Assembly (NCBI GenBank): GCA_035532135.1
Contig: DATKRQ010000041.1
Span: 1 to 28,846, forward strand
DNA length: 28,846 nucleotides
Origin: Candidatus Tyrphobacter sp.
GTDB lineage: Bacteria > Patescibacteriota > Minisyncoccia > UBA6257 > Colwellbacteraceae
Direction of reading: 5' to 3'
Below are positions 1,465-16,725 of this stretch, in pieces (within the stretch, counting starts at the first letter, position 1; each line of letters starts with the position of its first letter). Both the position numbers and the translations under genes were made by a program. The notes beneath the pieces are model-generated. The model saw nothing but the letters and a program-made list of their open reading frames with translations. It was not told the DNA's origin and ran no database searches.

Positions 1465-2055
1465 TTGAACGTGCCTGACGAAATCGAGCTTCTTAAAAAG
1501 GAAATCGAGCGGTTGAGGAAGCTGGCTTACAAAGACCCGCTCACTGGTTCTTTCAACCGGCGGGCCCTGATTGAGGAGGCGAACCGGATAGTCAAGGCGG
1601 TGGAGAAGTCGGAGATAGTTCATCATCGCCGCCGAAAATTCTATTTGAGCGCCTTGAGCGTCATTTTCTTGGACATCGACGATTTTAAGAAGCTTAACGA
1701 TGAATACGGCCACGAGGCGGGCGACGCGGTATTAAAGAAAGTAACCAGGCTTCTCGAGAACCACCTGAGGCAAAGCGACATTGTGGCTCGTTGGGGCGGC
1801 GAGGAATTCGCCATCGTCCTTTTGGGCGCCAACGTCGACGACGCGATGAAGGTGGCCGAACACTTACGGAGCGAAATCGAGAAAGCATCGATTACTTTCC
1901 GGGGAAAAAAATTAAAGATTACCGCCAGCTTAGGCGCGGCGGAAATCGAGCCAGGCGACGATTTGGGATCGCTCCTCAAGAAAAGCGATCAGGCGATGTA
2001 TGCCGCGAAAAAAAGCGGGAAGAATCGGGTTGTCAAATTCCCTCATTTGGACTAA
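1465..2055 (+). CDS. Diguanylate cyclase (stand-alone GGDEF domain)
   Basis: Motifs DPLTGSFNRR, DIDDFKKLNDEYGHEAGD and ARWGGEEF, with I-site RQSD. Start is TTG 1465 or GTG 1471. Confidence 0.95.
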   Translation: MNVPDEIELLKKEIERLRKLAYKDPLTGSFNRRALIEEANRIVKAVEKSEIVHHRRRKFYLSALSVIFLDIDDFKKLNDEYGHEAGDAVLKKVTRLLENHLRQSDIVARWGGEEFAIVLLGANVDDAMKVAEHLRSEIEKASITFRGKKLKITASLGAAEIEPGDDLGSLLKKSDQAMYAAKKSGKNRVVKFPHLD

Positions 2056-2086
2056 GTTGGAGAGGTTGATTTGTCTGAATTTCTTG

Positions 2087-2122
2087 GGAGGGGTCGCATA
2101 GCGGCCTAGTGCGCGCGCTTGG
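2087..2122 (+). repeat. Exact 36-bp duplicate of the tRNA-Ser(GGA) 5' half (to anticodon position 35)
   Basis: ggaggggtcgcatagcggcctagtgcgcgcgcttgg is identical at 2087-2122 and 2408-2443. Confidence 0.97.
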
Positions 2123-2156
2123 CCACCGCTGAAGCGGGGTTCCGCCGGAGGCGGAA
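2123..2156 (+). repeat. Two tandem GC-rich hairpins (REP/MITE-like)
   Basis: cc-a-ccgc-tgaa-gcgg-gg (2123-2139) and perfect ttccgcc-gga-ggcggaa (2140-2156). Confidence 0.8.
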
Positions 2157-2167
2157 AAAGCGAGATT

Positions 2168-2422
2168 ATGGCGTATTATGTTTATATAATTCAGAGCAAG
2201 AAGACGGGCCGCTATTACATCGGGCTGACGTCTGACATAGAAGAAAGATTACGGCACCATAATAGCGGCGCGAATAAATCGACTAAAGGTCGCGGCCCGT
2301 GGGTTCTGATTCACAAGGAATTATATAAGACCAAGAGAGAGGCTTGGGAGCGCGAACGTCAGATAAAAAGCTATAAGGGCGGCGAAGCATTTAAAAAATT
2401 AATCGATGGAGGGGTCGCATAG
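2168..2422 (+). CDS. Small GIY-YIG nuclease (UPF0213/YhbQ-like)
   Basis: YVYIIQS...YYIGLTSDIEERL..HNSG...WVLIHKE...EAWERERQIK carries both GIY-YIG halves and the conserved Arg and Glu. The last 15 nt overlap tRNA-Ser. Confidence 0.92.
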   Translation: MAYYVYIIQSKKTGRYYIGLTSDIEERLRHHNSGANKSTKGRGPWVLIHKELYKTKREAWERERQIKSYKGGEAFKKLIDGGVA

Positions 2423-2492
2423 CGGCCTAGTGCGCGCGCTTGGAAAGCGCGTATACCGAAAGGTATCGAGGGTTCGAATCCCTCCCCCTCCG
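2408..2492 (+). tRNA. tRNA-Ser(GGA)
   Basis: Acceptor ggagggg/cccctcc, anticodon arm cgcgc-ttGGAaa-gcgcg, long variable arm tatacc-gaaa-ggtat, T-loop ttcgaat, discriminator G. CCA not encoded. Confidence 0.97.
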
Positions 2493-2867
2493 CATATAGA
2501 AACTTCACGATTTTTCAGAGCCGCGCCGCTTCGCGGCGTTAGTGTGGGGGGAGCCGCAAATAAAAATGATAGGAAATTTTTGGGTTTTGCCCCGCGCGAG
2601 TTTGTCGAGTGCGGCCGAGGCGCAAGTGTCATTCGTCAAAATCCTGCGGATTTTGTCCGAAATACATTCGAACTTCGTCCAATACACACCGCACTTCGGT
2701 AAGCTCAGTGCGAGCACTTTGGAAAATTAGCATAAGCACTTTGGTTCGTAGTAGCCGACCTTCGCTAAATTCAGCCACTTTTTCGGTTCAAACTTCAGGG
2801 TGTCGTTCCTGTCAATCGGAGAAAATGATAGAATTGAGAGGAGAATTCTATCGAATTAACTAAATTT

Positions 2868-3873
2868 ATGAGACGCACGACAAATGTGTTTCTTGCTATT
2901 CCAATCATCATTGGGTTGTTGTATTTTCAAGCGTGGCCGACGCTGGCAGTTTCATTGAACTGCCTTACGCCAACTCAGGTTAAACAAGAGATCCAATCTA
3001 TCGAAGATGAGACTAATAATCAAGTAAGCCAAATCAAAAGCGAGTATGCGGCCATTGCTCAACAAGAGCAATCTAACACCAACGCCAACCTTTGGGCGTC
3101 TGGAATAGCTGGGAGTGGGACTGCGGCTTCGCAGATGTCAAATACGGAAACCGGAGTCATTTCCCAAGAGAGCGCTGCGATAGCAGATGCGTATTCTAAC
3201 GAACTCAATCAAGAAAACGAGATACGCAATAAAGTGTGTGGCGTCGAACAAAATGTGCAGGTGCAAGATAATTATTTATGTTCGAACGGAGAGGTGTCTT
3301 ATAACAACACGTGTATGGCTAAGTCGCTTTATGATATCGCATATTGTCGGCAAAAATATGGGCCAAGTTATACTTACTACGCAACAACTAATGTTTGTGT
3401 ACTAGCCTACTGTCCACCAAATTCCACAATGTATCAGTCTGGTTGTTGGTGTGACAAGGGATACGTGTGGAATAGTAGTTAGCCTTGCCTGTATAGGACC
3501 ACAGCGGGCGCCAGCTTCTATATTTAGCACTACAACGAGTGGAAGATCGGACAATGTGTATCAATCGAATATTCAGAAAACTTACCTCCCAACAACACCA
3601 ATAGCAACGCCTAAAACACAAATTACTACCCAAATAGGTAGGTGGGGTAAGAATGATCAATTCAAAAATGGAGTTAAACAAACAACCATCGGTGGAGTAA
3701 TGTCTAAGGGTTCGCTATCAAGTCAAGTAAATAAAATTGGAATAATTTCTGAGATACCAATTAATACTAATGTCAATATATCGCGTCCTGTATCGGATAA
3801 GTCACTAAGTATAATATCAGAAGCAAACGCTTTCGTTAGCGGACTTATGAGTAAGTTAGCTAGCCTTCTCTAG
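2868..3873 (+). pseudogene. Secreted Cys-rich (EGF-like repeats) protein split by a frameshift near 3480 (ORFs 2868-3482 and 3451-3873)
   Basis: N-terminal signal-like segment. GCWCDKGYVWNSS stops at TAG, but removing one base gives ...WNSSSLACIGPQ in the second ORF, completing the Cys motif. Visibly AT-richer than core genes. Confidence 0.65.
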
Positions 3874-3928
3874 GTTGAGGTTTGTTTTGTGTAGGGAAAC
3901 AAATTAGAAACTCAAGAAAGATCTTTAA

Positions 3929-6067
3929 TTATTCCAAGTGAAGTTCCTTTTCGAAGCTTGAGATTCTTTCCCGAAGAGCCGGATATAATTCAAGCTCCGG
4001 ATCGCTTTTCAGGATTTCCTCGGCGGCTTCGCGGGTCGATTTCACGAGAGCCGCGTCTTTCAAGGCTCGCATAGCGACATCGGGCAGGCCGGCTTGGGTT
4101 TCGCCCAGGAACTCCCCCGGGCCTCTCGTGGCTAGGTCTTTCTCGGCAAGCTCGAAACCGTTTTTGGCGGTTATAAGATGATGAAGCCGGAGCTTGGCGC
4201 CCTTCGATTCGGAGTCGGTAAAGAGAAGACAGTAGGACTGATATTCGCCTCGACCGACCCGGCCTTTGAATTGATAAAGCTGGGCTAGGCCGAAGCGGTC
4301 GGCTGATTCGATCATCATCACGGTGGCGTTCGGCACGTCGACGCCCACCTCAACAACCGATGTTGAAACCAGGATATCGATTTTCCCGTCTTTGAAGTCC
4401 CTCATTATTTTTTCTTTCTCGGCGCCTTTCATCCGGCCGTGAAGCATAGCGACTTTGAGATCGGGGAAAGTTTTCTCTCTAAGCTTCTCGTATTCCTCTT
4501 TGACTGTTTTAGTTTCGAGACTCCTTAGCTCGTCCGGCGTCCGGTAAACTTGGTTTCCTTCGGTTTCGGCTATTTCGATTCGGGGACAGATGACGAAAAC
4601 CTGTCGGCCGGATTTAACTTCGCTTCGGATGAATTCATAGGCTTTGACTCGAGATTCCGGCGGAACGATCCGGCTTATAATCGGCTTCCGGCCGTGGGGC
4701 AGTTCTTTGATAATCGAGACATCGAGATCGCCGAAAATGGCCATCATAAGCGTCCGGGGGATGGGCGTGGCTGACATGCTTAAGAAGTGAGGCACCAGCC
4801 CCGCGCGGCTACCCGAAAGAGCGGCTCGTTGCTTAACGCCGAAGCGGTGTTGTTCGTCGATAATGACGAGTCCCGGATTTTTGAATTTGACGCTCTCCTG
4901 AATCAAGGCATGGGTGCCGACGATGATTTTTATCTTATCCAGGGAAATGCCTCTTATAAGCTCTTCTTTTCTGATATCGGTCTCGAGCCCCTCGCCGTAG
5001 AAAGCCCTGGCTTCTTTGGAGACCAAAAGTCCCAGGCCGAGTTCGAAATCGCCGAAAAATTTCTTGAGCGTCTGGTAATGCTGGCGGGCCAGAATTTCGG
5101 TCGGAGCCATCAAGGCCACCTGAAAACCCGCCTCAGCTGCGATAACGGAAGCGATACCGGCCACGATGGTTTTGCCGGAGCCCACGTCGCCCTGAAGAAG
5201 CCGGTTCATCGGATGGCCCGATTCGAGATCCTGCAGAATTTCCCAAAGAGACTTTTTTTGAGAGAGGGTAAGCTCGAAGGGTAGGCGAGAAAGAATTTCC
5301 TTTGTTTTTTCGGCTTGGAATTTTATGATCGGCGCCAATTTTTTCGCCAAAGCCAGCTTCGATTTGATATTGGTGAGTTGGAGGAGAAACAGTTCCTCGA
5401 AGGCGAATCTTTTCCGAGAAGCCGCGGCCTCGGCCGGGGTTTTGGGGAAGTGGATGGCTTTGAAAGCCCTGTTTAGCTCGGGCAATTTTTCCCGGCGAAG
5501 GATTTTGGGCGGGATAAACTCGATGAGAGGCGAGAGATTTTCCAGGATCATCTCGGCGAAATATCTGATTCCCCTGGAAGTCAGGCCTCTGGTTTCGGGA
5601 TAAATCGGAACGAGCCGGCCGGTGTGTTTGGTTTTAGTCGGCCCCGCGGCGTTACTTACTTTTTCGTAAGTCGGATTGGAGAGATAGAGCTCGTTATCCC
5701 TTAAGGCGGTTTTCCCGGAAAAATTGGCGATCGCGCCTGCCTGGAGGACTTTCTTGATATAGGGCTGGTTGAACCAGACGGCCTTAATTGGTCCGGAGGC
5801 GTCTTCGAGAATGGCTTCGACGATGAACATCCGCCGCCGCCAGGTTTTTTTCACGTCAATCTCCTTTACTTCCGCCTGGATGGTTTTGGCGTCGCCCGGT
5901 TTCAAATCGGCGATTGGGGCTATTTCGCTCCAATCCTCATAGCGGCCGGGGAAGTGTTTTATAAGATCGCCGGCCGTTTCGATTCCCAGGCGTTTGAATT
6001 TAGAAAGGAATCCCGGCCCGATTTTGGGGAGATCGGAGAGGGGAGTGTCGACTGGAATCTTGGGCAT
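3929..6067 (-). CDS. recG: ATP-dependent DNA helicase RecG
   Basis: LLQGDVGSGKT, DEQHRFG, SATPIPRT, QFKGRVGRG and N-terminal wedge/OB domain. Start moved to ATG 6067 because the longer ORF begins inside tRNA-Lys. Confidence 0.97.
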   Translation of the reverse strand: MPKIPVDTPLSDLPKIGPGFLSKFKRLGIETAGDLIKHFPGRYEDWSEIAPIADLKPGDAKTIQAEVKEIDVKKTWRRRMFIVEAILEDASGPIKAVWFNQPYIKKVLQAGAIANFSGKTALRDNELYLSNPTYEKVSNAAGPTKTKHTGRLVPIYPETRGLTSRGIRYFAEMILENLSPLIEFIPPKILRREKLPELNRAFKAIHFPKTPAEAAASRKRFAFEELFLLQLTNIKSKLALAKKLAPIIKFQAEKTKEILSRLPFELTLSQKKSLWEILQDLESGHPMNRLLQGDVGSGKTIVAGIASVIAAEAGFQVALMAPTEILARQHYQTLKKFFGDFELGLGLLVSKEARAFYGEGLETDIRKEELIRGISLDKIKIIVGTHALIQESVKFKNPGLVIIDEQHRFGVKQRAALSGSRAGLVPHFLSMSATPIPRTLMMAIFGDLDVSIIKELPHGRKPIISRIVPPESRVKAYEFIRSEVKSGRQVFVICPRIEIAETEGNQVYRTPDELRSLETKTVKEEYEKLREKTFPDLKVAMLHGRMKGAEKEKIMRDFKDGKIDILVSTSVVEVGVDVPNATVMMIESADRFGLAQLYQFKGRVGRGEYQSYCLLFTDSESKGAKLRLHHLITAKNGFELAEKDLATRGPGEFLGETQAGLPDVAMRALKDAALVKSTREAAEEILKSDPELELYPALRERISSFEKELHLE

Positions 6068-6124
6068 ATCGGATATCTTACACCAAAAAGCACCCGGAAG
6101 ACGATCGGGCGCAAGTTTATTTTG

Positions 6125-6197
6125 TCCACCCACCAGGGCTCGAACCTGGGACCGTTTGCTTAAGAGGCAACTGCTCTACCAACTGAGCTATGGGTGG
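6125..6197 (-). tRNA. tRNA-Lys(CTT)
   Basis: Minus strand ccaccca-tagctcagttggtagagca-gttgc-ctCTTaa-gcaaa...ccagg-ttcgagc-cctgg-tgggtgg-a. Confidence 0.95.
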
Positions 6198-6206
6198 TTG
6201 GGTGGA

Positions 6207-6235
6207 AGTATATCAAAGTGAAAAAGAGTCCGCAA
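6207..6235 (-). promoter_or_regulatory. Sigma70-type promoter for tRNA-Lys
   Basis: TTGCGG-17 nt-TATACT with TGn extension, about 10 nt upstream of the tRNA. Confidence 0.65.
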
Positions 6236-6241
6236 TTGAGT

Positions 6242-6826
6242 TTAGCCGATAATCTTTAGGAGGGAACTCAAGGCCACTGGCAGTTCAAGTAGTTTATCGT
6301 CGCTCGTGCTGAAGTGACCCATTTGGTGTTCGGCGATGATTTCCGAACCGAGTTTTTCTTTAAAGTCTTCTTGATTTTCAAGGGGAACGAAGGGGTCGTT
6401 ATCGGAAAAAACAGCGATGCTCTTTTTAAGATGTGATTTAACCTTGCTTAGATCGATCGGGGTATCAAGCCATTCACGCTCTACTTCTTTTTCTTCGGCG
6501 CCTTCTCCGATATTAGTCAGCTCCTTGAAGAAACCAGCCACAAAAACGGCGCCGCCGACCATTGCTCCGTCTGGCGGGGCTTCGAGGTAGCGGGCGATTG
6601 CTTGGCAGCCCATACTATGTCCCAGAAAATATGTTCGTTCGTCTGGCGATCCGACGGCTTCCGAGATTTTCGAAATCCACTTATCAATCTCGGGCTTTTC
6701 CGGCTGTGGGAGTTGGGGAACATAAACCTCGAAGCCCTTGCCTTCCAGCTCTCTTTTTAGCCAAGGAAACCAGTCGTCTTCGGGATGACCGCCCCAGCCG
6801 TGAATTATAAAGATCCGTTTGTTCAT
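6242..6826 (-). CDS. Alpha/beta hydrolase, RBBP9/YdeN family
   Basis: IIHGWGG..DWFPWL, GHSMG nucleophile elbow, SDNDPFV, GHF. Confidence 0.92.
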   Translation of the reverse strand: MNKRIFIIHGWGGHPEDDWFPWLKRELEGKGFEVYVPQLPQPEKPEIDKWISKISEAVGSPDERTYFLGHSMGCQAIARYLEAPPDGAMVGGAVFVAGFFKELTNIGEGAEEKEVEREWLDTPIDLSKVKSHLKKSIAVFSDNDPFVPLENQEDFKEKLGSEIIAEHQMGHFSTSDDKLLELPVALSSLLKIIG

Positions 6827-7335
6827 AATTCTAGAATCTTGTTGAAAAATTCCAGCTTCTTTTTAGTATATTCTCGCTGCGACAAGCCATCAGACTTAAT
6901 CTTAAGTTGTTCATATTCGTTTTTAAGATTCGGATTACTTTCTAATAAAATCTGTGTATTCATTTGCATCTGAATTTCTGGAGTAAGACTAGAGGTTAGA
7001 TATATGTCTATCAGAAAATCTTTGTATATAAATTCCCATCTAGCCATCTTTTTCTCGGGTTCGATTTTGGTTGTATCCCCAAAAAGATGTTTAATGATTA
7101 GAACAGAATTCTCAAATTGATCACCCACCAACACACCCAAATCAATATCGTTTTCGCCAGCTATGCCTAATTTCGATGACCCAAGATAAATAATCCTTGC
7201 TTTAGGAATAGCATTATTAATTTTATTAATTACCTCATCGGCAATGTTTAGAACGTTTGGATCAAATGGAACTATTTTAACCGTTTTTTCTTGCGGGATT
7301 GTGTTTATATATTTTTCTTGATTTTTAGTAAGCAT
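6823..7335 (-). CDS. GrpB-like nucleotidyltransferase (Pol-beta superfamily fold)
   Basis: YLGSSKLGIAGENDIDLGV motif and C-terminal YEQLK...YTKKKLEF. Very AT-rich. ATGA overlap with the downstream hydrolase. Start set at ATG 7335, 12 nt after the tRNA 3' half. Confidence 0.75.
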   Translation of the reverse strand: MLTKNQEKYINTIPQEKTVKIVPFDPNVLNIADEVINKINNAIPKARIIYLGSSKLGIAGENDIDLGVLVGDQFENSVLIIKHLFGDTTKIEPEKKMARWEFIYKDFLIDIYLTSSLTPEIQMQMNTQILLESNPNLKNEYEQLKIKSDGLSQREYTKKKLEFFNKILEL

Positions 7336-7346
7336 GGCTTGGTTTG

Positions 7347-7525
7347 TGTCCCCGGCAGGAATCGAACCCGCAACCTCTTGGTTCCCCGCCTGCCTTTGCC
7401 GTGCCCCCGGAGGGACTCGAACCCCCAATGATTGCTTCGAAGGCAACTATGATATCCATTTCACCACGGGGGCAAATTACGGCGGGCAGGGAAGCCAAGC
7501 GCTCTATCCGTTGAGCTACGGGGAC
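7347..7525 (-). tRNA. Interrupted tRNA-Arg (joined anticodon most simply TCG): 5' half 7491-7525, 3' half 7347-7384, 106-nt insert at 35/36
   Basis: Halves gtccccgtagctcaacggatagagcgcttggcttc and gaaccaagaggttgcgggttcgattcctgccggggaca join to a 73-nt cloverleaf with A20, C35 and A73 (Arg identity). The exact junction is slightly ambiguous because of C/G runs. Confidence 0.88.
7402..7473 (-). tRNA. tRNA-Arg(TCG), intact, nested inside the interrupted tRNA-Arg
   Basis: gcccccg-tg-gtgaaatggatatcat-a-gttgc-ctTCGaa-gcaat-catt-ggggg-ttcgagt-ccctc-cgggggc-a (72 nt). Confidence 0.95.
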
Positions 7526-7577
7526 ATTGAGGCGACAATTCGAAAATCTTTATAAATTTAGGTTATAATGCCCTTAA

Positions 7578-9035
7578 ATGCAATTGACTTTCCCGAAGGA
7601 AATCAGGGCAATCATCGAGCTTTTAAAGAAGGAGGGGTTCGCTACTTTTTTGGTTGGCGGCTGCGTCCGCGATCTTCTAATCGGCCGCGAGCCCCAGGAT
7701 TGGGACGTGGCGACCGACGCTAAGCCGGCCGAAATCCAGAAGGTGTTTCCGGAAAGCGTTTACGAGAACCAGTTCGGCACGGTGGCGGTCAAAACGGGAA
7801 GCGAAGAAGAAAAACTTAAGCTCATTGAAGTAACTACCTTTCGGGAAGAAGGAAAGTACAGCGACCGGCGGCACCCCGACGAAATTAAATTCACCAAAAC
7901 CATCGAGGAAGATCTTTCGCGGCGGGATTTCACGATCAACGCCATCGCGCTTGGCGGATCGGATTCCGAAATCATCGACCCCTATGGCGGCCAATCTGAT
8001 TTAAAAAAGAAGGTTATTAAAGCGGTCGGCAATCCAGACGAGAGATTTGGCGAAGATGCCTTGCGGATGATGCGGGCGGTCAGACTTTCGGCGGAATTGG
8101 GATTTGAAATCGAAGCGGGGACGGCCGAGGCGATAAAGAAGAATTCGGCTCTCCTGAAATTTATGGCCGAGGAAAGGGTGAGAGACGAGCTTGTTAAAAT
8201 TGTCCTCTCGCCTCGGGCCAAGGAGGCCATCGAGGAACTGGAACGGATCAGTCTCCTTAAATATATTATTCCCGAACTGCGCGAGGGCCTGGGGATGAGC
8301 CAGAATCTCCATCACATCTATACCGTCTGGGAGCATAATCTGCGGGCCCTGGATTACGCGGTGGGCAAGAACTATGATTTAGTAGTCAGGCTTGCCGCTC
8401 TGCTTCACGATGTGGGAAAGCCCCGCACTAAAAGAGGCGAAGGGCCCCACGCCACTTTCTATAATCACGAGGTAGCGGGGGCGAGGATGACCCAGAAAAT
8501 AATGGAGCGGCTTAAATTCCCGAAGGATGTTTCCGAACGGGTAGTTCATTTGGTGCGCTTTCATCTTTTTTATTATAACGTGGGCGAGGTGACCGAAGCT
8601 GGCGTTCGGCGCTTCCTCCAGCGAGTGGGGGTGGAGAACGTGGACGACTTGATGAGAATTCGGGAAGCCGACCGGATCGGTTCGGGCGTGCCCAAGGCCG
8701 TGCCTTATAAATTGAGACACCTAAGGTTCATGATCGACAAGGTGCGGCAGGATCCCATTTCACCGAAGATGCTTAAAGTGAACGGAACGGACGTGATGGA
8801 GATTCTTCGCCTTGAGCCGAGCCCCAAAGTGGGGTATATTTTAGCCGCCCTCCTTGAGGAAGTCTTGGACAAGCCTGAGAGGAATGAAAAGGATTATCTT
8901 GTTTCGAGAATGAAAGAACTCGATAAGATGAGCGAGGGCGAGTTGAAGAGGCTTTTCGAATCGGCCAGGAAAAAGAAGGAAGAATTTGAAGGCGAAGCCG
9001 AAAGAGAAATAAAGGAAAAGTATTATGTGAAGTAA
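7578..9035 (+). CDS. cca: CCA tRNA nucleotidyltransferase with HD domain
   Basis: VGGCVRDLL, DWDVATD, FREEGKY loop, DLSRRDFTINA, EDALRMMRA, LLHDVGK. Confidence 0.9.
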   Translation: MQLTFPKEIRAIIELLKKEGFATFLVGGCVRDLLIGREPQDWDVATDAKPAEIQKVFPESVYENQFGTVAVKTGSEEEKLKLIEVTTFREEGKYSDRRHPDEIKFTKTIEEDLSRRDFTINAIALGGSDSEIIDPYGGQSDLKKKVIKAVGNPDERFGEDALRMMRAVRLSAELGFEIEAGTAEAIKKNSALLKFMAEERVRDELVKIVLSPRAKEAIEELERISLLKYIIPELREGLGMSQNLHHIYTVWEHNLRALDYAVGKNYDLVVRLAALLHDVGKPRTKRGEGPHATFYNHEVAGARMTQKIMERLKFPKDVSERVVHLVRFHLFYYNVGEVTEAGVRRFLQRVGVENVDDLMRIREADRIGSGVPKAVPYKLRHLRFMIDKVRQDPISPKMLKVNGTDVMEILRLEPSPKVGYILAALLEEVLDKPERNEKDYLVSRMKELDKMSEGELKRLFESARKKKEEFEGEAEREIKEKYYVK

Positions 9036-9036
9036 T

Positions 9037-9107
9037 CGGGGTGTCGTATACCGGCAGTACGCACGCTTCGGGTGCGTGTAGACTGGGTTCGATTCCCAGC
9101 ACCCCGA
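9037..9107 (+). tRNA. tRNA-Pro(CGG)
   Basis: cggggtg/caccccg acceptor, cacgc-ttCGGgt-gcgtg anticodon arm, ctggg-ttcgatt-cccag T arm. Confidence 0.95.
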
Positions 9108-9140
9108 CACTTATGTGCCGCCCTCGACCGGAGTTTTCGG

Positions 9141-9169
9141 TTGCCGTGATCGGTTCGATTTGCTAAATT
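9141..9169 (+). promoter_or_regulatory. Sigma70-type promoter, probably giving a leaderless mRNA for the HD protein
   Basis: TTGCCG-17 nt-TAAATT with TGn, 6 nt before the ATG. Confidence 0.55.
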
Positions 9170-9175
9170 TTAAGT

Positions 9176-9745
9176 ATGGAAGACTTTAGGAAAAGAGCTT
9201 TGATACTTCTTGAGGAAAACATTAAGAACCGAAATCTTATAAAGCATAATCTGGCGGCCGGGGCCTTGATGAAGGCGTTAGCGATTCATCTTCACGAAGA
9301 GAATAATGCTGATTTATGGGAATTAGCCGGACTGGTTCACGACTTGGATTGGGAGCTCACTCAGAACGAACCCCAAAAACACACCGAGCCGGCGGCCGAA
9401 ATTTTAAGAAAAGAGAATTTTCCTCCGGAGGTGATTGAGGCGGTCTATCGGCATAATTTCCACGCCAATCACCTGGCGCCGGAAACATTGATGGAAAAAG
9501 CGCTTTATTACACCGAGGAGGCAACGGGCTTGATTGTGGCGGCTGCTCTCATTTTGCCCTCGAAGAAGTTGGCCGATTTAACGGTTGAGAGCGTTATGAA
9601 GAGATTCGGAGAAAAATCATTCGCCCGCGGGGTGGATCGAAACTTAATTCTTGAGATGGAAGGAAAACTGGGGCTTAGGGTGGAGGAACTGATGCGAATT
9701 GCTCTTCCGGCGCTTCAGGCGATCCACGGGGATTTGGGACTTTGA
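9176..9745 (+). CDS. HD/HDIG-domain metal-dependent phosphohydrolase
   Basis: LIKHNLA...WELAGLVHDLD...H...AVYRH...FARGVDR pattern. Confidence 0.88.
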   Translation: MEDFRKRALILLEENIKNRNLIKHNLAAGALMKALAIHLHEENNADLWELAGLVHDLDWELTQNEPQKHTEPAAEILRKENFPPEVIEAVYRHNFHANHLAPETLMEKALYYTEEATGLIVAAALILPSKKLADLTVESVMKRFGEKSFARGVDRNLILEMEGKLGLRVEELMRIALPALQAIHGDLGL

Positions 9746-12175: not shown

Positions 12176-12943
12176 TCCCTTCGTGAAGATGAGTCGAAAG
12201 AGAGCAAGCATGAACGGCTGAAGAGGTCTCAGGTTTAGAGTGTCTCAGCGGCCGCTTCAAAGCGGCTTTTTCTTTCCTGCCGAGACGGCAAACGACTCGA
12301 CTGAAGTTTGACAATCAAATAGAGAAATAGAAACAAGGTGAGCATTTAAATGACCGTTTCTCGAAAATTTGAGGGTTATTAAGAGCGTATGGTGGATGCC
12401 TTGACGCAAAGTAGCGATGAAGGACGCGGCGTAGCGGCGATACGCCTCGGGGAGGTGCGTAGCAACCTTTGATCCGGGGATTTCCGAATGGGAAAACCTA
12501 ATCTGGCAAACCCAGATTGTTTCGAGCTTAAAAACTCGAATCGCACACCCGCTGAAGTGAAACATCTCAGTAAGCGGAGGAAAAGAAATCAAGTCTGTCC
12601 CTTGAGGGGCAGAAATATTCCCTAAGTAGCGGCGAGCGAAATGGGAAGAGCCCAAACCTCGATTTTTTGGCGCAAGTCAGAAAAACGGGGGGTTGTAAGA
12701 CTGGAAAATTTTAGTTGTTAACTATTGGTCCTAATTAATTTTAGTTATCAATAGTTAACGACTAAGGCTGGTTACAAATTGCTTTGTTAGTTGAAGGGAT
12801 TGGAAAGTCCCGCCAAAGAGAGTGAAAGCCTCGTAAACGAAAACAACAGCAACCAGTTTTTCTTGATCTTGAGTACTTCGAAGAATGAAAACTTTGAAGG
12901 AATCATCCTGAACTATCAGGAAAGGCTAAATATACTTTGTGAT

Positions 12944-12980
<37 letters not shown>

Positions 12981-15133
12981 CAGCCCTGTTAGGGCGGTGA
13001 AATAGACCTGAAACCGTACGCTTACAAAGAGTCGGAGCCCGGTCGCGTCGCTTGCGACGCGATGGGTGACGGCGTGCCTATTGAAGAATGAACCAACGAG
13101 TTTATCTTATTCCTTTGTCTAAGTTCCACGGAACGGAGGCGGAGGGAAACCGAGTCTTAATAGGGCGTCCCGCCGCAAGGCGGGGGAGGGATGAGATAAG
13201 ACCCGAAGCCAAGCGAGCTTGCCCCGGCCAGGGTGAACCCCGCCGAAAGGTGGGGGGAGGCCCGAACCGGTTGATCGTGCAACATCTTCGGATGAGCTGG
13301 GGTAAGAAGTGAAAAGCTAATCGAGCTTGGGAATAGCTGGTTCTCTCCGAAACAGTTTTAGGACTGGCGTCACGTGTTTCCTTCTGGGGGTAGAGCACTG
13401 GAAGGGCTTGAAAGGGCGAAAGCTCGCGAGCCCTATCAAACTCCGAATACCAGAAGATTAAAACGTGGCAGTTAGACTACGGGGGCTAAGCTCCGTGGTC
13501 GAGAGGGAAAAAGCCCTGATCGCCGTCTAAGGTCCCTAAATTTCTGCTAAGTGTTAAAGGTGGTCGCAAACCAGAGACAGGTAGGAGGTTGGCTTAGAGG
13601 TAGCCATCCTTTAAAGAGTGTGTAACAACTCACTACTCGATGGTTTACGGCGCCGAAAATTTACCGGGGCTAAAGCAGAATACCGAAGACGCGAATCCCG
13701 CCGCAAGGCGGGGTGGTAGGAGAGCATTCCTAACGCAGTGAAGCTCCAGCCGCGAGGCGGAGTGGAGCGTTGGGAAGAGAGAATGTTGGTATGAGTAACC
13801 TCAAAGTCAGTGAGAAACTGGCTCCCCGAAAATCCAAGGTTTCCGTGGCACTGGCAATCATCCACGGGTTAGGCGATCCTAAGGCAATGGCGAAAGCCGC
13901 AGCTAAATGGGAAGCTGGTTAATATTCCAGCCCTTCCGTATTTTTCGATGGAGTGACGGAAGACAGTAGACGAGGCACCTTATTGGTTTGGTGTCCTTGA
14001 TCGAGGACGATATCCAGGCAAATCCGGATATCTGCTTTTAATGGCGCGTCTCAGTTAAAAGGCGAGTCGGGGTTTTTGCCTCGGCAAGTTCGTCGAGCGT
14101 CTTTCCCAGAAAAACTTCTAAGGTTAGGAATATGGAAATCGTACCGGAAACCGACACAGGTGGATAGGGCGAGAAGCCCAAGGGGAACGAGTGATTCTCC
14201 GTTAAGGAACTCGGCAAAAAAGCGGCCGTAAGTTAGCAATAAGGCCTTCCCGCCAACGATATAGAAATATAAAGAAAGCGGGACGCAGCGAAAGTATCTC
14301 TGGCGACTGTTTATCAAAAACACAGCTCCCTGCGAACTCGTAAGAGGATGTATAGGGGGTGACGCCTGACCGATGCGAGAAGGTTAAGACTGGCGGTGGC
14401 GTGTAGCAATATGCGCTGCTGACTGGTTAAAGCCCTCGTCAATGTCAGCGGTAACTATAACCGTTCTAAGGTAGCGCATTTCCTTTTCGGGTAAGTTCCG
14501 AAGCGCACGAATGGCGTAACGACTGGAGAACTGTCTCAACGGAGAGCTCGGTGAAAATGCGATTCCCGTGAAGACGCGGGATACCTGCAGCGGGACGAAA
14601 AGACCCCGGGAGCTTTACTGTAGTCTGGTATTGGCTCTAGGGTTTGGCTGCGTAGTGTAGCGGGTAGGCTTTGAAGCTCCGATTTCGGTTGGAGTGGAGC
14701 CAACAATGAAACACCCGCCTTCCAAACTTTAGAATCTAACCAATGCGGCAAAAACGCATCGGGACAGTGCTTGATGGGCAGTTTTTCTGGGGCGGAATCC
14801 TCCTAAAGAGTAACGGAGGAGTTTATCAAGGTCAGCTAGGGTCGGATGGAAATCGACCTGGTCGCGTAAAGGCAGAAGCTGGCTTGACTGCAAGACTTAC
14901 AAGTCGCGCAGGTGCGAAAGCAGAACTTAGCGACCCGACGGCTCTTTATAGAAAGGCCGAAGATATCGGACAAAAGCTACCCCGGGGATAACAGGCTGGT
15001 TTCGTCCGAGCGTCCACAGCGACGACGAAGCTCGGCACCTCGATGTCGGCTCGCCCTAGCTCGGGGCTGAAGAAGGTCCCAAGAGTTTGGCTGTTCGCCA
15101 ATTAAAAGGGCACGCGAGCTGGGTTCAAACCGT

Positions 15134-15454
15134 CAAAAGAACCATATTACATCGATAATCACACGGCGGCGCAGAAGAGTAATCTTCTGCTGAGAAGTTG
15201 ACTCATATCGGTGAAGTCCTAACAATACGTTGCGACATCAACCTGTCGTATGTTGGGATAATACCGAGGGAAGTCGTACGTGCCTCTCTTCTTAAAGAGA
15301 GACGTGTATTGACCCCGTAGAGACTTGATCCGAATGGATCAGATTCGCCAATCGGCGGATAACACGTCAACCTCCTTTGATGCGTTCAGGATTTATTCTG
15401 AGCCTGTCGAAGGATGATGGTATAGTCCATACAATTAGTAATAATTGATTCATG
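15134..15454 (+). mobile_element. Group I intron (IA-like) at 23S position L2593, no ORF, 321 nt
   Basis: Exon aaaccgU|...uucaUG|cgtgagacag. Guide cacg+gcgg (15163-15170) pairs with the 3' exon cgtg (P10) and 5' exon ccgt (P1). P3 gttgac/gtcaac, P7 gact/agtc, P7.1 and P7.2 hairpins. Confidence 0.92.
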
Positions 15455-16616: not shown

Positions 16617-16725
16617 TCCCGGTGATCTAGTCGGAAGTGTCCCACCTCTTCCCTTTCCGAACAGAGAAGTGAAAGCTTCCGACACCGATGATAGTTCGTT
16701 AGAGCAAAAGTAGGTTTCGCCGGGA
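16617..16725 (+). rRNA. rrf: 5S rRNA (ends approximate)
   Basis: tcccggtg...ccacctcttccctttccgaacagagaagtgaa...agtagg...ccggga, with terminal helix pairing. Confidence 0.92.

Follow-up and report, generated by a model that had tools for sequence, protein, structure and literature searches.

Probable insertion of two small cassette families into tRNA genes of Patescibacteria, with replacement of the part that each insertion breaks

The DNA analysed here (the window, 28,846 nucleotides) is contig C41 of a Candidatus Tyrphobacter genome, an assembly of 491 kb in 68 contigs with an estimated completeness of 95% and of a size typical of Patescibacteria (Candidate Phyla Radiation, CPR). The window holds five tRNA genes (ARAGORN and Rfam), and at two loci a tRNA gene is interrupted in its anticodon loop. 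At the first, a tRNA-Ser gene, the interruption belongs to a 321-bp cassette that encodes a small predicted nuclease of the GIY-YIG superfamily and that is either present or absent in natural populations. At the second, a tRNA-Arg gene, the insert is non-coding and encloses a complete tRNA-Arg. We propose, with a probability of roughly 0.6, that both are insertions at the level of DNA, made by two related families of small cassettes that colonise the tRNA genes of Patescibacteria and survive by replacing what they break. Both families are widespread and apparently undescribed; a literature search turned up no account of the tRNA association, the palindrome reported below or a tRNA nested within a tRNA in bacteria.

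At the Ser locus, the front of the tRNA-Ser(GGA) gene occurs twice, as an exact 36-nt direct repeat (2087-2122 and 2408-2443, 100% identity, spacing 321 nt). The anticodon GGA has index 35-37 in the full gene at 2408-2493 (ARAGORN), and the 36-nt copy therefore ends after the second anticodon base, that is, at canonical position 35/36. It is followed by two hairpins, H1 (CCACCGC-tgaa-GCGGGG, 2123-2139) and H2 (TTCCGCC-gga-GGCGGAA, 2140-2156), with no run of T after them, and then by the six bases aaagcg (2157-2162), which pair with the anticodon-stem strand of the remnant in the DNA fold. Because tRNA positions 36-41 resume beyond the hairpins, the hairpins are an insert at 35/36. The first-pass annotation of this DNA had let the Ser copy stop after tt-gg (positions 32-35); the break does lie at 35/36, but the copy continues with aaagcg on the far side of the double hairpin. 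Most of the 3′ half of the stub is missing. The stub is 100% identical to the working copy and yet already holds the hairpins, which must therefore be part of the arriving unit and not a product of later decay; by the same identity, the cassette is young. The GIY-YIG open reading frame (ORF) extends 15 nt into the working tRNA-Ser, so that its last five codons and the stop codon lie inside the tRNA gene. The boundary of the 321-bp unit is free to slide within the 36-nt repeat.

The three best-matching public sequencing runs are soil metagenomes (X1-X3), whose Logan contigs were mapped to window positions 2000-7600. All three contain a contig that passes straight from 2086 to 2408 and skips 321 bp. 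The depth of this joint contig, about 6, equals that of the flanks, and no difference is found in its 87 and 681 flanking bases, while the interior of the cassette has a depth of 0 in X1 and X3 and of 1.4 in the remaining run. An empty allele, in which the GGDEF gene is followed immediately by an intact tRNA-Ser, exists and dominates in these soil runs, and the gain or loss of exactly the 321-bp cassette is a presence/absence polymorphism. Alleles with and without the gene at one precise site, between identical flanks, are what is expected of a homing endonuclease. Such precise presence and absence of the 321 bp indicates that the Ser cassette is mobile or was recently mobile. Other joints in the read mapping had sides of only 20-39 nt with foreign letters between them and were rejected as cross-matches of tRNAs from other organisms. 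In a hot-spring metagenome (run X4, window 2002-2122), a relative of about 92% identity diverges at the end of the 36-nt tRNA front; it may hold the same locus with a different or an uninterrupted tRNA-Ser. Strain variants were also sought by exact-protein look-up, which returned no record for the GGDEF protein and, for the contig of the CCA-adding enzyme, a match that was 100% identical and hence uninformative.

The 84-residue protein of the Ser cassette consists of a GIY-YIG domain and nothing else. It scores 64.4 bits against PF01541, above the curated cut-off of 22.6 (E=1.2e-17, profile positions 2-70 of 78), and so belongs to the GIY-YIG superfamily. Its nearest solved relatives are UPF0213 proteins (PDB 1zg2, E=4.9e-10; 1ywl, E=6.2e-7; residues 1-69), and it has the traits of the UPF0213/YhbQ-like group: a length of about 80-110 residues, the domain alone, and similarity to BH0048 and EF2693. 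The match to SLX1 is weak (E=0.22), and NCBIfam yielded solely a sub-threshold match to a group I intron endonuclease. The gene is the only ORF within either insert; neither encodes a tyrosine or serine recombinase, as an integrase-type element would. Small GIY-YIG genes are common among relatives of the host, being present in 46 of a set of 61 genomes and in 330 of a class sample of 401, with up to 13 matches per genome, the maximum in a genome of about 1 Mb.

We read the surroundings of 30 such genes from the relatives and of 20 more chosen as the closest homologues (46-68% identity). Most GIY-YIG copies in the relatives adjoin a co-oriented tRNA gene (Ser, Gln, Asn, Glu, Lys or Tyr) and have a partial 5′ copy of this same tRNA upstream of the ORF; in both sets this 5′ stub is mostly interrupted by hairpins. 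The 20 closest homologues lie mostly at tRNA-Ser (GGA, TGA and CGA) and tRNA-Tyr genes, and those with the most similar proteins (59-68% identity) are mostly at tRNA-Ser, with one at tRNA-Tyr. The hairpins form a conserved double-hairpin family, H1 being CCACCGCC-N3-GGCGGGG and H2 TCCCGCC-N3-GGCGGGA, in which the stems are kept and the loops are free. Hairpins homologous to those of the window were seen at loci L002, L122-L125, L127, L132 and L133; L122, L123 and L124 share the H1 stem of the window, CCACCGC(C)..GGCGGGG, and L122 and L123 have it at 35/36. Altogether the double hairpin sits at 35/36 in the window and at L122, L123, L132, L133 and L138, and at 34/35 or 35/36 at L135; position 35/36 is the site in seven Ser cassettes of one GIY-YIG clade. 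As in the window, the stub resumes after the hairpins at L123 and L132 (tRNA index 37-45) and at L133 (37-43). Elsewhere the double hairpin occupies the D-loop (index 14/15 or 16/17; L002, L124, L125, L127, L128 and L136) or index 18/19 of tRNA-Gln (L021 and L141), and in the tRNA-Tyr cassettes a hairpin replaces the anticodon arm. At L127 (G104:C25), a stub with the double hairpin stands on either side of the GIY-YIG gene. The same combination of double hairpin and gene is thus found with more than one tRNA species and in more than one bacterial family.

When all tRNAs were compared with the 491-kb genome by blastn, the only partial copy beyond the Ser and Arg loci of the window was a tRNA-Gln 3′ fragment on another contig. 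The genome contains a second cassette (contig C20, about 8900-9354), in which a small GIY-YIG gene with a frameshift comes after a tRNA-Gln(CTG). Beyond this gene, 16-23 nt from the T-loop to the 3′ end of tRNA-Gln stand a second time; the layout mirrors that of the Ser cassette.

The Arg locus is a tRNA within a tRNA (Table 1). On the minus strand, 7525-7491 joined to 7384-7347 forms a perfect 73-nt cloverleaf, tRNA-Arg(TCG), and the intervening 106 nt (7385-7490) are non-coding and enclose a complete tRNA-Arg(TCG) between the ends CCTGCCCGCC and GGCAGGCGGG. The palindromic sequences of this and of the Ser insert lie where the first-pass annotation had placed them, and its simplest split of the outer Arg gene, after ct-tc (32-35), agrees with our finding that the break falls after C32-T33-T34-C35 and that the halves joined at 35/36 give the perfect tRNA-Arg(TCG). 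If the split were at 36/37, the outer gene would read Gly(TCC); A20, A73 and its likeness to the tRNA-Arg(TCG) of the relative L054 favour Arg. The inner gene is the sole tRNA-Arg(TCG) of the genome, and its type of D-arm is the usual one for the bacterial family. As inner and outer genes differ in D-arm type, they are not recent or local duplicates. Removal of 7385-7490 restores the outer tRNA exactly, and a target-site duplication is absent here as in the relatives read; of the marks of a miniature inverted-repeat transposable element (MITE), the insert shows the terminal inverted repeats and lacks the target-site duplication. ARAGORN with introns allowed fails to call the outer tRNA-Arg, which was found after the insert had been removed by hand. 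The resident outer gene is probably a split pseudogene, and the cargo the only tRNA-Arg(TCG) of the cell. The earlier statement that both inserts lack a group I core and a clear bulge-helix-bulge is borne out: across the whole window, no intron family of Rfam attains its gathering score, and no bulge-helix-bulge (two 3-nt bulges and a 4-bp helix) is predicted by folding at the junctions of the Arg insert. Most of the 106-nt insert is taken up by a tRNA, and most of the 321-nt one by an ORF.

Table 1. Features of the interrupted tRNA-Ser and tRNA-Arg loci (window positions).
Feature	Position	Strand	Evidence
Left-over front copy of tRNA-Ser(GGA), positions 1-35 (36 nt)	2087..2122	+	direct repeat; blastn of tRNAs against the genome
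Double hairpin, an insert at 35/36 of the left-over copy, 34 nt	2123..2156	+	DNA fold; homologous hairpins in relatives
aaagcg, resumed left-over tRNA, positions 36-41	2157..2162	+	sequence reading; pairs in the fold
Gene of the 84-residue single-domain GIY-YIG protein (predicted nuclease)	2168..2422	+	Pfam PF01541, PDB matches, ORF list
Working tRNA-Ser(GGA) gene	2408..2493	+	ARAGORN; Rfam tRNA 53.9 bits
321 bp missing from the empty-site allele	2087..2407	+	joint 2086->2408 in runs X1-X3
Outer tRNA-Arg(TCG), positions 1-35	7491..7525	-	joined halves fold as a 73-nt tRNA; blastn
Insert left end CCTGCCCGCC	7481..7490	-	same end in cargo-carrying inserts of 36 other genomes
Inner working tRNA-Arg(TCG)	7401..7473	-	ARAGORN; Rfam 62.2 bits; comparison with 28 relatives
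Insert right end GGCAGGCGGG	7385..7394	-	conserved-end search
Outer tRNA-Arg(TCG), positions 36-73	7347..7384	-	fold of the joined halves; blastn

Both the tRNA-Ser (2408-2493) and the inner tRNA-Arg (7401-7473) lack an encoded 3′ CCA. The gene of the CCA-adding enzyme (7578-9035) directly adjoins the nested tRNA-Arg.

The ends of the Arg insert, CCTGCCCGCC and GGCAGGCGGG, match the two halves of a 20-nt palindrome, a perfect copy of which, CCTGCCTGCCGGCAGGCAGG, stands beside the tRNA-Arg of the relative L045. With up to two mismatches, the palindrome occurs in 219 of the 401 class genomes, in as many as 41 copies, and its reversed control in none. Single 10-nt half-sites occur at chance frequency in the genome under study and are meaningless alone. 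The split form, searched as CCYGCCYGCC, 75-105 nt and GGCRGGCRGG, was found in 37 of the 401 genomes (control 0), nearly always with the exact two ends of the window insert. About half of the 30 split-form loci that were read carry a tRNA as cargo (15 cases), and the remainder about 80 nt of other sequence. In all 15 tRNA-carrying cases the anticodon of the cargo is that of the split gene. Their junction lies at 35/36 in six or seven (Arg-TCG, Arg-TCT twice, Gly-TCC, Thr-TGT twice and perhaps Gln-TTG), in the D-arm in seven and in the T-loop (56/57) in one, and no sequence is common to the junctions. Five of the 15 outer genes have decayed beyond recognition by ARAGORN; they are therefore not under selection, which argues against splicing. 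Among 28 relatives, the nested tRNA-Arg(TCG) was not found save for a truncated homologue at a contig end (L034). This homologue, from a different family, has the same left end, and the anticodon stem of its inner tRNA differs by fully compensated changes, from which it follows that the cargo evolves as a working tRNA. Most of the 20-nt palindromes lie away from tRNAs and GIY-YIG genes, with 5 of 30 within 100 nt of a tRNA where about 2% are expected (p=2e-4).

Two further loci were recorded in passing. In genome G049 (L060, contig C5), an outer-type tRNA-Arg(TCG) is followed in tandem by a degenerate inner-type copy; both types of tRNA-Arg coexist there side by side. At L113 (G197:C29), an outer tRNA-Thr is split in its D-arm by a cargo cassette, and its anticodon-loop hairpin TCCGCC-aaa-GGCGGA resembles H2 of the window.

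The two families have several things in common. Both use the same target positions, namely 35/36, the D-arm and the T-loop. At L071, a tRNA-Thr stub comes after the GIY-YIG gene and is interrupted between ggta and gagc by the exact 20-nt palindrome; a working tRNA-Thr stands next. At L083, the tRNA behind the GIY-YIG gene is a broken tRNA-Trp whose D-loop holds the palindrome. Across genomes, co-occurrence with the GIY-YIG gene is confirmed: the palindrome is present in 205 of 330 genomes that have the gene versus 14 of 71 that lack it (odds ratio 6.7, p=6e-11, statistics that take no account of the relatedness of the genomes), and the gene is present in 36 of the 37 genomes with split-palindrome cassettes. 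The first-pass annotation had envisaged one mechanism aimed at anticodon loops, with the GIY-YIG cassette as the autonomous form and the Arg insert as a non-autonomous form carrying a tRNA. As to the first idea, 35/36 does recur in both families, but sites in the D-loop or D-stem and in the T-loop are about as common among the relatives, and on C20 it is the T-loop-to-3′ end of tRNA-Gln that is duplicated; the target looks like the loop, not the anticodon as such. As to the second, the tRNA cargo, the palindrome inside L071 and L083 and the co-occurrence speak for it, whereas physical linkage is lacking and the end sequences differ (see below). That both inserts are built on a shared ccgcc..ggcgg core proved not to be diagnostic. 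We tried this core as a marker and abandoned it: the genome has 27 such hairpins where shuffled sequences have about 2, but they lie in rRNA, terminators, a tRNA variable arm and a dispersed repeat, and are generic.

A dispersed repeat of the genome has runs of gagatttgag and a slot for a hairpin (C18:167, C18:4293, C25:942, C63:191 and C19:30-55). In four copies the slot holds gCCGCC-N3-GGCGGc, and in C19 a shortened CCTGCC..GGCAGG palindrome; two of the copies lie near tRNA genes and adjoin a T-arm-like segment. Elsewhere in the window, about 1.4 kb separate the 23S rRNA gene (12369-15191) from the 5S rRNA gene (16618-16725) downstream of it.

The course of events that we propose is as follows. 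The Ser cassette would arrive at 35/36 with the double hairpin, a 6-nt relic of positions 36-41, the GIY-YIG gene and tRNA positions 1-35 in a new copy; this new front would join the resident rear half to form a working gene and leave the resident front as a dead stub. The Arg cassette would likewise arrive at 35/36 of a resident gene, bringing a complete tRNA-Arg(TCG) between the halves of its palindrome. By analogy with its relatives, which are structure-specific (SLX1/UPF0213 type) or specific for hairpins of single-stranded DNA (Ssn type), the small nuclease may act on hairpin or loop DNA. It could open transiently single-stranded tRNA gene DNA at the tips of loops or hairpins, and repair would then copy the cassette in. 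Cutting at loop tips is proposed because the targets share a loop position and not a sequence, because the cargo sits at the centre of the palindrome, and because the relatives of the enzyme are specific for hairpins or structures. Selection would leave just those insertions that restore an essential single-copy tRNA. Arg-type cassettes could be mobilised in trans by such nucleases, a step that we infer.

A number of observations weigh against this proposal. The empty Ser allele could equally have arisen by deletion between the 36-nt repeats, which leaves the direction of the change ambiguous; moreover, the Logan graph has k=31 and the repeat 36 nt, so that the zero depth of the cassette interior speaks against an assembly artefact without excluding it. 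For the Arg insert, no empty-site allele was seen in the three soil runs. The working tRNA-Ser regenerates an intact 35/36 site, and a homing enzyme that recognised the tRNA would cut its own allele again; if the target is the tRNA sequence itself, the filled allele still contains it intact, and for this reason classical homing fits poorly. The genome has just one intact GIY-YIG gene and lacks an intact 20-nt palindrome (genome search), and the role of the nuclease is a prediction from its sequence. A search with a profile of 50 homologues found the GIY-YIG gene within 1.5 kb of none of 30 Arg-type cassettes, of 2 of 30 palindromes and of 1 of 29 control tRNA-Arg loci. The conserved Ser hairpins differ in sequence from the conserved Arg ends and have only a short GC stem (CCGCC/GGCGG) in common with them, and the genome-level co-occurrence disregards the kinship of the genomes counted.

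Three other explanations were weighed against these data. The inserts might be removed from the transcript as introns, for instance if RNase P and RNase Z released the inner tRNA and the halves were ligated, so that the outer tRNA-Arg works. The outer gene is indeed still a perfect cloverleaf, and as RNA the insert ends are predicted to lengthen its anticodon stem into a long, near-continuous helix (z = -4.0). Nevertheless, we find splicing scarcely credible, given that neither a group I core nor a bulge-helix-bulge was found, that 5 of 15 outer genes in the relatives have decayed, that the Ser stub is without most of its 3′ half, and that the inner tRNA alone supplies the anticodon. Nor is it at all probable that nothing has moved and that the arrangement reflects local duplication or slippage, the GIY-YIG protein being a resident housekeeping nuclease that uses tRNA promoters and the hairpins being terminators or processing signals. 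Chromosomal genes for UPF0213-type proteins are common across many bacteria (PDB matches), this genome is rich in GC hairpins, and simple deletion between repeats could account for the empty allele. However, the conserved double hairpin and the gene recur across tRNA species and bacterial families, one genome of about 1 Mb has as many as 13 matches, frameshifted copies exist, the hairpins are not followed by T-runs, and the inner and outer tRNA-Arg are too different in D-arm type for a local duplicate.

Less improbable than either, though still unlikely, is that the window holds two unrelated elements, a GIY-YIG cassette and a MITE-like inverted-repeat insert moved by another enzyme or by recombination, which share a position by coincidence or selection, only insertions into tRNA loops with a replacement being able to survive. 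The absence of GIY-YIG genes within 1.5 kb of all 30 Arg-type cassettes and the different end sequences would then be natural, the generic nature of the ccgcc..ggcgg core would fit, and so would the many split-palindrome copies whose cargo of about 80 nt is not a tRNA and which resemble ordinary miniature elements, as well as the location of most 20-nt palindromes away from tRNAs and GIY-YIG genes. Against this stand the single small set of targets (35/36, D-arm and T-loop) used by both families, the exact palindrome inside tRNA stubs of GIY-YIG cassettes and the co-occurrence at genome level; in addition, no transposase-like candidate is evident, and the Arg insert lacks the target-site duplication that most transposase-driven miniature elements leave. 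We thus prefer two related families that insert into tRNA genes as DNA. As a tentative extension, one hairpin-directed mini-nuclease system, with the 84-residue GIY-YIG protein as its enzyme, might move coding and non-coding cassettes alike into the apexes of tRNA loops, without a transposase or integrase. The cargo would then sit at the palindrome apex, and a single rule, insertion at a hairpin tip with replacement of what is broken, would explain the nesting. Bacterial mobile elements would gain a new class if such a system were real.

In these tiny genomes, essential single-copy tRNA genes are split again and again by DNA equipped with a spare part. Should the small nuclease be what drives the spread, about 300 bp would suffice as a minimal self-propagating unit, with neither transposase nor integrase. 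In annotation, the outer genes escape programs that search for tRNAs and the stubs are labelled wrongly, and tRNA sequences in such genomes may have been horizontally replaced rather than inherited. The 20-nt palindrome and the double hairpin are searchable markers and ready substrates for biochemistry.

Among known systems, the Ssn family consists of single-domain GIY-YIG nucleases, defined as CDD family cd10448, which are site-specific for single-stranded DNA and flanked by hairpin repeats (NTS/SRM); the enzyme cuts single-stranded DNA beside the hairpin repeat (Chenal et al. 2025, PMC11893778). Its authors remark that the gene layout resembles a mobile element, and their discussion links IS200/IS605-type transposases to repetitive extragenic palindromic (REP) sequences, while tRNA is not mentioned in the paper (PMC11893778). 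The Ser cassette shares with Ssn a very small single-domain GIY-YIG protein and GC-rich hairpin repeats that lie by the gene and are also dispersed in the genome; flanking hairpin repeats of the 20-50 nt characteristic of Ssn are found here on one side only, directly upstream of the gene. In contrast to Ssn, the nearest solved relatives of the Ser protein are UPF0213 proteins, and neither a duplicated gene part nor split hairpins with cargo appear in the Ssn paper. If the small nuclease is indeed the driver, this would extend the recently discovered hairpin-specific GIY-YIG nucleases of this kind from the restriction of single-stranded DNA to gene mobility.

SegB is a free-standing GIY-YIG homing endonuclease in the tRNA gene cluster of phage T4 (PMC2330249; PMC13096335). 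It resembles the Ser cassette in being a GIY-YIG gene among tRNA genes; SegB cuts tRNA gene DNA and thereby promotes the inheritance of its own gene and flanks, and the Ser cassette is likewise polymorphic. Seg proteins have roughly 200 residues or more and a separate DNA-binding domain, compared with the 84 residues of the Ser-cassette protein. Unlike the Ser cassette, Seg genes lie between genes, with no split tRNA, stub, replacement part or conserved hairpins.

In fungal and chytrid mitochondria, Paquin, Laforest and Lang reportedly described mobile endonuclease ORFs, a hybrid atp6 gene in Allomyces and double-hairpin elements (DHEs). There, too, an endonuclease ORF inserts together with a replacement gene end, and the same genomes contain mobile double hairpins that are small and GC-rich. 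Those systems are organellar, have protein-coding targets and replace the 3′ end, whereas the elements described here reside in a bacterial chromosome, enter tRNA genes and replace the 5′ part. We know of no whole-tRNA cargo nested in its cognate gene in these mitochondrial systems. Islands and prophages with an integrase are said to integrate into tRNA genes at sublocations in the anticodon loop or T-loop (Williams, Nucleic Acids Res, 2002). The sublocations are thus alike, and in both cases a replacement tRNA part keeps the gene functional; unlike such islands, the present inserts have no integrase, measure 106 and 321 bp instead of kilobases, and supply the 5′ part or the whole tRNA, not the 3′ part.

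REP and REPIN palindromes are short, GC-rich and dispersed in tens of copies, and one small nuclease-like gene, the RAYT transposase, serves them in trans. The dispersed GC-rich palindromes described here are similar, and the Arg-type cassette resembles a MITE in being a non-coding derivative with inverted-repeat ends. It differs in that the enzyme at hand is a GIY-YIG protein and not an HUH/Y1 transposase, that no target-site duplication is made, and that the insertions lie in tRNA loops and bring a cognate tRNA. Palindromic mini-elements are already known, as are endonuclease cassettes with a duplicated gene end, and the cassettes of this genome are variants of both kinds.

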